Shown piece by piece: positions 42,101 through 45,100 of a stretch of DNA of 64,000 nucleotides. The stretch is from NCBI RefSeq assembly GCF_017348835.2, contig NZ_CP071375.1. One strand, 5' to 3'. Position numbers: made by a program. Position 1 is the stretch's first letter; the number at the start of each line of letters is the position of its first letter. Origin of the DNA: Escherichia coli (GTDB lineage: Bacteria > Pseudomonadota > Gammaproteobacteria > Enterobacterales > Enterobacteriaceae).

Positions 42101-45100
42101 CGTGTGTCATTCAGGCTTCCGGACTACAGCCCACTCCATATCTGATTTAATACACTATCCCGGCCGGGAGGAATAATGACATTTAAACATTATGATGTTG
42201 TCAGGGCGGCGTCGCCGTCAGACCTTGCGGAAAAGCTGACACACAAACTGAAAGAGGGCTGGCAGCCATATGGCGGACCGGTTGCCATTACGCCGTACAC
42301 ACTGATGCAGGCGGTGGCTATTGAAGGAGATCCACAGGTCGGCCCTTCATCTGAGCCGGACTGGTTCTACGTGGTTGTGCTTGCCGGACAGTCCAACGGC
42401 ATGGCCTACGGTGAAGGGCTTCCGTTACCGGATTCTTACGATGCTCCGGATCCGCGCATTAAACAGCTGGCGCGCCGCAGCACGGTAACTCCGGGTGGAG
42501 AGAGTTGTACGTATAACGACATCATCCCGGCTGACCACTGTCTGCATGATGTGCAGGATATGAGTACGCTGAATCATCCGAAGGCAGACCTGAGCAAAGG
42601 GCAGTACGGCTGTGTCGGCCAGGGCTTACATATTGCCAAAAAACTGCTTCCGTATATCCCGAATAACGCGGGGATCCTGCTGGTACCATGCTGTCGTGGT
42701 GGTTCGGCATTCACCCAGGGCGCGGAGGGGACATTCAGTGCGGACACGGGGGCCAGCCAGGATTCGGCACGCTGGGGTGTGGGTAAACCGTTATATCAGG
42801 ACCTGATTGCGCGCACTAAAGCTGCATTACAGAAGAACCCGAAAAATGTGTTGCTGGCGGTGTGCTGGATGCAGGGAGAGTTTGACATGAGCGCCGCCAC
42901 CCACGCACAGCAACCTGCGCTGTTTACAGCCATGCTGACACAGTTTCGTGCTGACCTCTCCGTGTTTAACGCGCAGTGCCATGGTGGCAGTGCTGCAGAT
43001 GTGCCGTGGATTTGTGGTGACACGACGTATTACTGGAAAAATACATACGCTACCCAGTACGACACCGTGTACGGCGGGTATAAAAACAGGGAGAGTGAGG
43101 GCGTTTATTTTGTGCCCTTCATGACAGACGGTAACGGTGTCAATACCGCCACTAACGCGCCGGCAGAAGATCCGGATATTCCGGCATCAGGATATTACGG
43201 TGCGGCATCGAGAACGAATGGAAACCAGGTATCATCAAACCGCCCGACACATTTCAGTTCATGGGCGCGCAGGAGCATTATTCCGGATCGTCTGGCAACC
43301 GCTATTCTGAACGCAGCCGGGCGCACCTCAGCCTTCATCAGTGGTAAGGCACCGGAAATCAAACCCTCGCCCGGCGGCAACACGCCATCGGGTCCGTCTG
43401 CAGATACGTCCGTTCGCACAATCTCCCTGCTGCCGGCAGACGGAGAGGCTGCTGCGCAGGGCTGGAGCATTAAGGATGGCGGAATTCAGTTGTCAGATGG
43501 TGTATTTAAGATCACCAAGCAGAGCAATAAAACCTGGTCCCTGACGCATCCGGTGGATGACGCAATTACCCTGCTGACACAGGGCGGCAGACTGACCTGT
43601 AAGTTCCGCCTGTCAGGCGCGCTGACCAACAATCAGTTCGGGCTGGGGATTTATCTGTATACGGATGCTCCCGTTCCTGATGGTGTGGCGATGACGGGTA
43701 CCGGTAATCCGTTCCTGATGTCGTACTTCACTCAGACCACTGACGGCAGAGTGAATCTGATGCATCACAGGAAAGCCGGAAACACGAAGCTGGGGGAGTT
43801 CGGCGATTACGGTAACGACTGGCAGACGCTGGAGCTGGTGTTCACCGCCGGCAGTGCCACGGTTACTCCGAAACTGAATGGAGTGGCTGGCCCGGCATTC
43901 CAGGTTATAAAAGACAGTCTGACACTGGGACTGAATGCGCTGACGCTGACGGATGTTACAAAAAATGCAGCGTATGGCGTTGAGATAGAAAGTCTGGTGC
44001 TGGAGATAAATGCACCGGCAGCATAATAAAAAAAGAGCCAGCGACTGACCTGAAAGAAGACGCTGGCTAAAAGGCCTTATATGTTTGTAGAGACTTATTT
44101 TTCACAGACAGCAATGATGCCTGTCAATATATTATCAATATGCGGATTGTTTCAGTTACAGATGCTTTATTAAGGAAAAAAACAGCCAGCACTGACTTTC
44201 GGTGGAGAGGTGCTGGCTCAGAAGGATAGTTGGATTTCACATGATACTTATGTCTGGCGGTATATTTTCTGACAGACAGTGACGGATGTTGTCAAGATAT
44301 TGTGTCATTTATAACCTGAACCAGGGGGGCCGGAATGTTATCTGGCATTTTTAGCAGAGCCTGAATGCCATAATCACGGCTCCCGGAGTTGGCCGTCAGT
44401 GGGTGACACTGGCGGCTTTTTGTTTTCCTTTACTTTCATTTTCTGTCGGCGGTGACGGAGACATACATCAGATGGAAAAAATCACAACAGGTGTGTCATA
44501 CACCACGTCAGCGGTAGGGACGGGATACTGGTTACTGCAACTGCTGGACAAAGTCTCTCCGTCCCAGTGGGTGGCAATAGGTGTACTGGGGAGTCTGCTG
44601 TTTGGCCTGCTGACGTATCTGACTAACCTGTATTTCAAAATCAGAGAGGACCGGCGTAAGGCGGTGCGGGGAGAGTAAAGTGATGAAGAAAAAATACGAA
44701 CTGGTTGTTAAAGGGATAAATAATTACCCGGATAAGATTACTGTTACTGTGGCACTGGAAATTGGTGGGTATCCGTCACTGTTGTTGCCAGATGTGGCGA
44801 TTAGTCTTGACCGTACTGAAGGTGCCACGCTGGAGTTTTACGAAGCTGAGGCGAAAAAGCAGGCGAAGCAGTTTTTCATGGATGTTGCTGCCGGGTTATG
44901 TGAAGGGGATGGTCCGTTGCCGGAAAAGCGGCCCATCATTTTAGAGGCGCAGGATGTGTTGATAACCTACAGAGGAAAACTACCGGGAATAATTACTGGT
45001 TCTCTGAAGACTCCACCGCTGGCCTGAAGACTTAACATATCCAGGGATTTGAAATCGATAAATCCTGATAAATATCCATGAACGCAAAAATCAGATACGG

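Follow-up and report, generated by a model that had tools for sequence, protein, structure and literature searches.

Two diverged tandem copies of a small-RNA gene, pasA and EcOnc51/52, very probably occupy the minus strand of an Escherichia coli prophage esterase-holin spacer

The spacer between the esterase and holin genes studied here, within a window of 64,000 nucleotides of E. coli DNA (the whole stretch that was analysed), very probably carries a small-RNA (sRNA) gene twice on the minus strand, in tandem and with the copies diverged from each other: pasA (copy B) and EcOnc51/52 (copy A), each of them intrinsically terminated. The element is already known, being the published prophage sRNA locus PasA/EcOnc35 plus EcOnc51/52, and the significance of the analysis is small beyond correct annotation: a published sRNA locus had been read on the wrong strand, and is not a new element of the late transcript. 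Only minor points are new here: next to pasA stands a diverged paralogue in tandem, bearing a different seed, and one cross-reference between published catalogues looks wrong.

Prophage setting and pattern of the duplication

The locus belongs to the late genes of a lambdoid prophage of the H-19B / 434 / Stx1-phage type. Over the 481 bp around the repeat, identity is 99.8% with phage H-19B and 96% with Stx1a phages, YYZ-2008 and phage 434. The spacer between esterase and holin measures 446 bp and contains both repeat copies (44028-44310); the holin gene is followed at the same locus by a lysozyme gene, and tRNAs are located upstream of the esterase gene. The following features frame the spacer:

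42176-44026, plus strand: sialate O-acetylesterase gene (NanS-p type), 616 aa, with DUF1737, SASA and DUF6645 (Pfam scan, homologue annotation)
44472-44678, plus strand: class II (phage 21 type) holin S gene, 68 aa (Pfam PF04971, E = 1e-32)
41774-41966, plus strand: STnc100 (Rfam covariance-model match)
41967-42028, minus strand: AgvB (Rfam covariance-model match)

In this prophage the sialate esterase is a moron, and the holin gene is a pinholin gene.

Read on the plus strand, the two copies have a common plan, which consists of A7, hairpin arms AGCCAGC.../...GCTGGCT, and then TATTTT-(C/CTG)ACAGACAG-N10-TGTCAA-N-ATATT. This is the pattern that the initial annotation had described, and it was found in both places where it had been noted:

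Copy A, plus-strand reading: A7 at 44028-44034, hairpin arms at 44036-44046 and 44058-44068 (inverted repeat)
Copy B, plus-strand reading: A7 at 44177-44183, hairpin arms at 44184-44192 and 44210-44218 (inverted repeat)

The pairwise alignment that had been proposed for the two segments proved to be far above chance. Semi-global alignment of 44028-44140 (copy A) with 44177-44308 (copy B) gave a score of 30, compared with 6.3 +/- 2.4 for dinucleotide shuffles (z = 10), none of 3000 shuffles scoring as high, and the same score was reached by none of 2964 random window pairs. Chance similarity of the copies is ruled out by these shuffles and window pairs. Two blocks carry the signal: the terminator block (z = 7.1) and a 40-nt flanking block (z = 7.7), neither of which was equalled in 5000 shuffles. 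Because these blocks are significant while the 25-45 nt between them show similarity no better than chance (z = -0.1), the duplication is a two-block, degenerate one. Copy B is longer than copy A by about 15-20 bases, and the start-to-start period is 149 nt for the hairpins and 168 nt for the ACAGACAG block; the direct duplication first described is therefore real, but its period is not the 130 bp or so that had been given for it.

Strand and terminators

The A7 that stands ahead of each hairpin on the plus strand is, on the minus strand, a U7 tail behind the hairpin, and since this tail follows directly there, both hairpins are Rho-independent terminators of the minus strand. A GC-rich hairpin with a U-tract is found for both copies on this strand. 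On the plus strand a U-tract behind the hairpins is absent (AAAAGG and CAGAAG stand there), and the statement in the initial annotation that the hairpins lack T-runs and so are not simple terminators applies to the plus strand only.

44177-44218, minus strand: terminator of copy B; stem AGCCAGCAC/GUGCUGGCU, 17-nt loop, U7 at 44183-44177 (inverted repeat 9/9 complementary, fold, covariation)
44028-44068, minus strand: terminator of copy A; stem AGCCAGCG(U)CU/AG(U)CGCUGGCU, U7 at 44034-44028 (inverted repeat, terminator scan, fold, covariation)

A consensus terminator scan called the copy A site on the minus strand, and this terminator ends two bases (44027-44028) past the esterase stop codon. 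In the curated record of phage 434, both sites are annotated as minus-strand terminators, together with a plus-strand terminator just ahead of the holin.

Covariation across related prophages, the analysis originally suggested for these hairpins, supported the stem. From viral contigs, 120 related loci were gathered by the pattern ACAGACAG-N10-TGTCAA-N-ATATT, and 29 distinct variants were aligned. Over these variants, 92.8% of the cells of the 10-pair stem were paired, falling to 22-54% when the register was slid, and compensatory changes (C-G to U-A, G-C to A-U) were present in 4 of the 10 pairs. In 8 of the 29 variants, U-G pairs occurred that would be C-A mismatches if read on the plus strand; these pairs are valid only on the minus strand. 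Published strand-specific data (Hfq-CRAC, RNase E-CLASH, RNA-seq, northern blot) likewise place PasA, EcOnc35 and EcOnc51/52 on the minus strand. The region thus consists of two minus-strand units, each closed by an ordinary intrinsic terminator and antisense to the phage late operon. Of the earlier proposal of a duplicated structured RNA in the late transcript, the first part stands, as both copies are RNA genes, and the second falls, as they are antisense to the plus-strand late transcript and not within it.

Small ORFs (30 aa on the plus strand, 38 aa on the minus strand, ATG-TGA in copy B) were rejected, since neither a ribosome-binding site nor conservation supports them.

Copy B corresponds to PasA

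44176-44260, minus strand: copy B, pasA small-RNA gene, 85 nt, PasA-2-like variant (alignment to PasA, probe, covariance model, Hfq peak)
44208-44217, minus strand: published PasA seed 5'-GCCAGCACCU-3', identical in the window, overlapping the 5' arm of the terminator stem

In EPEC, PasA (pathogenicity-associated sRNA A), one of five named prophage sRNAs, is encoded in the spacer from the esterase E2348C_0688 to the holin (PMC8550237). In Table S6 of the same study, it starts at 743499 of NC_011601 (minus strand), the major form (85 nt) ending at 743415 and the minor form (236 nt) at 743264. As the PP2 locus of E2348/69 is 98% identical to window positions 44000-44480, PasA corresponds to 44260-44176 on the minus strand, and the minor isoform, whose end translates to about 44025, stops at the copy A terminator. 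Copy B and PasA of E2348/69 (NC_011601 743499-743415, minus strand) are identical at 75 of 85 positions (88%). They are alike in locus (esterase-pasA-holin), strand, 85-nt length, terminator, seed and probe sequence, and their 3' 45 nt are identical; they differ by 10 substitutions, all of them within the first 40 nt. The published northern probe GCCAGCACTGACTTTCGGTGGAGAG matches exactly at 44185-44209, and the seed GCCAGCACCU is that given for PasA in the text of Fig. S5 (PMC8550237). The published order of genes, esterase-pasA-holin-lysozyme, agrees with that of the window, where copy B lies on the strand opposite to both of its neighbours. A covariance model, built from 18 PasA/PasC-type sequences that included neither the window nor any sequence of copy A, matched copy B with 108 bits (E = 2e-18). 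In a single-sequence fold, the 5' half of copy B is mostly unstructured, and is followed by the terminator hairpin and the U7 tail.

Accumulation of PasA depends on Hfq, and the sRNA has been validated by northern blot and RIL-seq, the latter yielding 41 interactions through a defined seed, the partners being for the most part mRNAs of the core genome and of virulence genes (PMC8550237). The target motif published for it is CUG(A/U)UGCUGG, and by number of RIL-seq interactions PasA ranks 12th. Expression in uninduced cultures was seen in EPEC (RIL-seq and northern blot) and in Sakai (Hfq-CRAC), in both cases for sequences near-identical to the window variant. The description of PasA-2 in a recent preprint by Zhu, Shabalina and Storz (10.64898/2026.05.13.724894) fits copy B, in which the 3' 45 nt and the seed are kept while the 5' 40 nt differ. 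We infer from this description that copy B is a PasA-2-like form.

According to the mechanism that we propose, copy B would give rise to an 85-nt RNA with Hfq-dependent stability, which would pair with target mRNAs by the seed at the 5' arm of its terminator. Its function, as judged from the literature, would be Hfq-mediated pairing with core and virulence mRNAs, and a cis-antisense effect on the late transcript may be added to this.

Hfq peaks in O157 Sakai and their cross-reference

Prophage Sp12 of O157 Sakai contains the whole region at 99% identity. In Sp4, copy A is found alone, cut by IS629, and copy B is found alone at another site. Copy A is identical to the window in both prophages, and copy B differs from it there by one SNP. 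Orphan Hfq-CRAC peaks of this strain are listed in Table S2 of Tree et al. 2014 (PMC4104026). Both the 2014 and the 2017 table use the numbering of an older Sakai record, and offsets of +1 (Sp4) and +136 (Sp10/Sp12) were derived from read sequences. After offset correction of Table S2, the peaks translate to the window as follows:

44017-44094, minus strand: EcOnc52 (Sp4) Hfq-CRAC peak, copy A
44020-44096, minus strand: EcOnc51 (Sp12) Hfq-CRAC peak, copy A
44265-44192, minus strand: EcOnc35 (Sp4) Hfq-CRAC peak, copy B, in 5/5 datasets

The area under the curve was 1.0-1.1 million for copy A, about 8 times lower than the 8.2 million of copy B. RNase E-CLASH reads (Waters et al. 2017, PMC5286369) include the exact minus-strand sequence of copy A, for example CUUUCAGGUCAGUCGCUGGCUCUUUUU, in at least 7 fragments, and one read of the same study carries copy B, AACUAUCCUUCUGAGCCAGCACCUCUCCACCGA, mapping to 44231-44199.

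EcOnc35 is thus the counterpart of copy B (one SNP), and EcOnc51 and EcOnc52 are the counterparts of copy A (identical). The three peaks are without a name or northern validation, and were never listed as homologues of one another; a full-text literature search for EcOnc35, EcOnc52 or the sequences themselves gave no matches. Pearl Mizrahi et al. identify PasA with EcOnc51/52, which they take as its EHEC homologues (PMC8550237). By sequence comparison, the Sakai orthologue of PasA is EcOnc35, and the published match between the EPEC and EHEC catalogues seems to be shifted by one copy.

Copy A as a diverged paralogue and the question of its promoter

44028-44094, minus strand: copy A, EcOnc51/EcOnc52, about 67 nt, 5' end approximate (Hfq-CRAC peaks, CLASH reads, covariance model)
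44261-44303, minus strand: conserved block adjoining the PasA 5' end, putative promoter; TTGACA at 44295-44290 (common block, z = 7.7)
44095-44135, minus strand: conserved block upstream of copy A, candidate promoter; TTGACA at 44127-44122, then TGT-GAAAAA (homologous to the PasA block)

The covariance model described above found copy A over its full length (44028-44107, minus strand) as the second-best match in the 64-kb window, with 33.2 bits and a rough E-value of 2e-4. As the model was built without copy A, this result identifies copy A as a diverged PasA paralogue. The terminator stem and the upstream block are those that it has in common with copy B, and at the position of the seed it carries GCCAGCGUCU in place of GCCAGCACCU. 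A stretch specific to copy A is GUCUCUACAAACAUAUAAGGCC. The same segment also forms the 3' part of the published 236-nt read-through isoform of PasA, and is spanned by the RIL-seq entry pasA.E2348C_0688.IGR (PMC8550237).

In the block that adjoins PasA, TTGACA occupies positions -35 to -30 from the published 5' end and is followed by TGT-CAGAAA, which resembles an extended -10 element. From these motifs, the 40-nt block is probably a promoter with a TTGACA -35 and a TGn-extended, weak -10. The -10 elements are weak in both copies (CAGAAA and GAAAAA), and a simple consensus promoter scan called neither block. According to the preprint, the mature 5' end of PasA results from cleavage of a longer transcript (10.64898/2026.05.13.724894), in which case the upstream block would be a leader and not a promoter; Table S6 gives a single 5' end for both PasA isoforms (PMC8550237), which is at odds with that statement. 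An alternative promoter (-10 TAATAT / CAATAT, with transcription beginning at the A of TTGACA), which CLASH reads at 44122-44092 had suggested, was rejected, as it has no -35 and is needless given the 236-nt isoform.

The RNA of copy A could come from its own promoter-like block, from the tail of the 236-nt PasA read-through transcript, or from both. One reading, which we consider plausible without being persuaded of it, is a tandem duplication of pasA in which the duplicated unit would comprise promoter, gene and terminator, and after which copy A would have become an independently transcribed sibling sRNA, with promoter block and terminator kept and with a new seed, GCCAGCGUCU, and a new 5' body. 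A decayed duplicate is likewise conceivable, with copy A serving only as a back-up terminator against an antisense run into the esterase gene, and with EcOnc51/52 as the Hfq-bound 3' end of the 236-nt isoform; we regard this second reading as about equally plausible. It would account for the minor PasA isoform, which has the same 5' end and stops at the copy A terminator, for the weaker Hfq-CRAC signal of copy A, and for the copy A body, which is unrelated to PasA and shows no detectable similarity to it. It would also account for the CLASH reads at 44122-44092, which lie upstream of any copy A start and show that the PasA read-through RNA exists. Against it, copy A keeps the 40-nt upstream block with a perfect TTGACA, and a plasmid copy that has diverged in its RNA body has this block unaltered. 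Moreover, copy A is found unaccompanied by copy B on EHEC plasmids as well as beside IS629 in Sakai Sp4, its CRAC peak ends sharply near 44094-44096 at both Sakai loci, and in every RIL-seq chimera its stretch takes the position of the sRNA (RNA2). Since the reads of copy A are inseparable from the 236-nt read-through RNA, as well as between the identical Sp4 and Sp12 copies, its independent transcription is putative.

If copy A is indeed a sibling sRNA, the locus would encode two regulators with distinct target sets, and the lysis cassette of the phage might be a further target of both RNAs, given that they are antisense to the spacer between esterase and holin. Two published statements would then need correction: that PasA equals EcOnc51/52, and, in the 2026 preprint, that pasA copies are never in tandem, the closest pair being 22 kb apart (10.64898/2026.05.13.724894); the preprint evidently left copy A out of its count of pasA copies.

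Action in cis and reading on the plus strand

Control of the phage in cis, by pairing with the late transcript or by convergent transcription, and serving to lower leaky holin expression or to adjust lysis timing, is unlikely to be the main role of these RNAs, with control of host mRNAs in trans as a secondary one. In favor of such a role, each of the two RNAs is complementary over its full length to the spacer between esterase and holin in the late mRNA, the 3' end of the adjacent esterase mRNA is among the partners in PasA chimeras, and an 8-nt match, GGTGCTGG, is present in the window at 43996-44003. Lambda OOP RNA is a precedent for cis-antisense control. The interactions of PasA detected by RIL-seq nevertheless argue for action in trans, given their mostly core-genome and virulence partners, and the literature reports no lysis phenotype.

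The least probable reading is that of the initial annotation, in which the paired hairpins form a duplicated cis-regulatory or processing element within the plus-strand late transcript: although that transcript must cross the region, the same hairpins fold on the plus strand, and a plus-strand RIL-seq fragment (pasA.E2348C_0689.IGR, 743494-743512) occurs in chimeras with PasB, a plus-strand function is rejected on the wobble pairs, the missing U-tract and the covariance-model scores (15 bits, E = 0.5, for the plus-strand hairpin, against 33 and 108 bits on the minus strand), and every published RNA species with defined ends is on the minus strand.

Distribution and related small RNAs

The region was found in 691 of 5426 complete E. 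coli genomes, and a search for the exact block pattern in 100,044 species representative genomes retrieved E. albertii only, plus 8 chance matches. Among the 120 sampled viral contigs, 72 have the tandem arrangement (spacing 166-168), 36 have a single PasA/PasC-type copy beside the esterase gene, and 4 have copy A only. The tandem paralogue pair is thus present in 72 of these 120 contigs, and was not recognised in the recent survey of Pas sRNAs.

PasC (79 nt, from PP5 of E2348/69 and also in phage 2B8) has the position, strand, upstream block and PasA-like 5' body seen at this locus, and differs in its terminator loop and inner stem (GCCAGCGUCC...GGGCGCUGGC). By its probe, it represents the single-copy form of the locus, as in phage 2B8 and many contigs, whereas the window holds the two-copy form, without PasC. 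OmrA/OmrB and PrrF1/PrrF2 are tandem-duplicated sibling sRNAs, that is, adjacent paralogues with a conserved 3' end and promoter region and with differing 5' or seed parts. The likeness of copies A and B to these pairs is limited, in that copy A would be independently transcribed only by one reading of the locus.

Several other candidate identities were rejected. Families of Rfam 15 (including AgvB, AsxR and STnc100) gave no match at E <= 1 within 44028-44310, and the Rfam matches to AgvB and STnc100 are found only at 41774-42028. Sakai Sp15 and Sp10 are without this spacer, and have instead a 150-bp spacer of the Stx2-phage type in which only the first 42 nt are common. The region upstream of essD in DLP12 of K-12 shows no similarity to the repeat region. 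HnrS (EcOnc10-12), a 66-nt sRNA of prophage late genes, maps downstream of Rz, at window positions 47280-47305. The anti-sRNAs AgvB and AsxR, as well as HnrS, resemble copies A and B in being short, Hfq-bound, intrinsically terminated and convergent with late transcription at moron boundaries, but have no sequence relation to them. AgvB and one copy of HnrS are present in the same window.

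Catalogued counterparts and mosaic copies

In published tables (PMC8550237 Table S6 vs PMC4104026 Table S2), EcOnc51/EcOnc52, two of the orphan Hfq-binding sites of E. coli O157:H7 Sakai, are given as the counterparts of PasA. Judged by sequence, the Sakai orthologue of PasA is EcOnc35, with EcOnc51/52 corresponding to the adjoining copy A, the diverged paralogue of the pasA gene (copy B). Compared with the Sakai RefSeq now in use, the coordinates in the tables of 2014 and 2017 are shifted, by +1 at prophage Sp4 and by +136 at Sp10/Sp12.

Copy A also occurs alone. In plasmid NZ_CP027473 (2913-3150) and at about 100 other plasmid places, a solitary diverged copy A (93% identical) is accompanied by the terminal 87 nt of the esterase gene and adjoins a uilS lactonase gene and IS66. 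These plasmids are 80-108 kb in size and come from human, pig and stool isolates. Variant A38 (L065 4673) is a mosaic, in which the body and promoter block of copy A are joined to a terminator loop of the type found in PasC, the single-copy form; therefore, terminator modules are exchanged between paralogues by recombination.

IS629/IS1203 and other IS elements have inserted repeatedly within or directly beside PasA-type or copy A genes (loci L011 3131 in Sakai Sp4, L123, L131, L104, L059 and L035/L043), either splitting copy A from copy B or truncating the terminator. Such recurrence suggests that the sRNA genes are an insertion hot spot.

Seed-complementary octamers

The octamer GGTGCTGG, which can pair with the central part of the PasA seed, is present at 43996-44003 and 44209-44216 (+). 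The first site falls within the final codons of the esterase, whose gene has been listed among the RIL-seq partners of PasA in published work. Across the window the octamer was counted 14 times against 2.8 expected, 12 of the 14 on the + strand, an excess that may reflect codon usage or targeting.

Neighboring sRNA genes and terminators

The following features flank the two copies:

41774-41966, +, STnc100 (146 bits)
41967-42028, -, AgvB (anti-GcvB sRNA), perfect (96.5 bits)
44329-44346, weaker terminator
44391-44427, +, strong intrinsic terminator, 11-bp stem then TTTTTGTTTT, also annotated in phage 434
47280-47305, -, exact match to the HnrS (EcOnc10/11/12) core

The strong terminator lies 45 nt upstream of the holin start codon and probably keeps moron transcription off the lysis genes in lysogens. 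Upstream of the esterase gene, STnc100, for which a relation to PasD has been stated, and AgvB form a convergent pair, at the position that the stx genes occupy in Stx phages.

The HnrS core match, immediately 3' of the Rz/spanin gene, shows that an HnrS copy is present in the window as well, the full copy likely spanning about 47254-47344 (-). HnrS is a 66-nt Hfq-bound sRNA that is reported to counteract Hha/H-NS silencing (2025 preprint).
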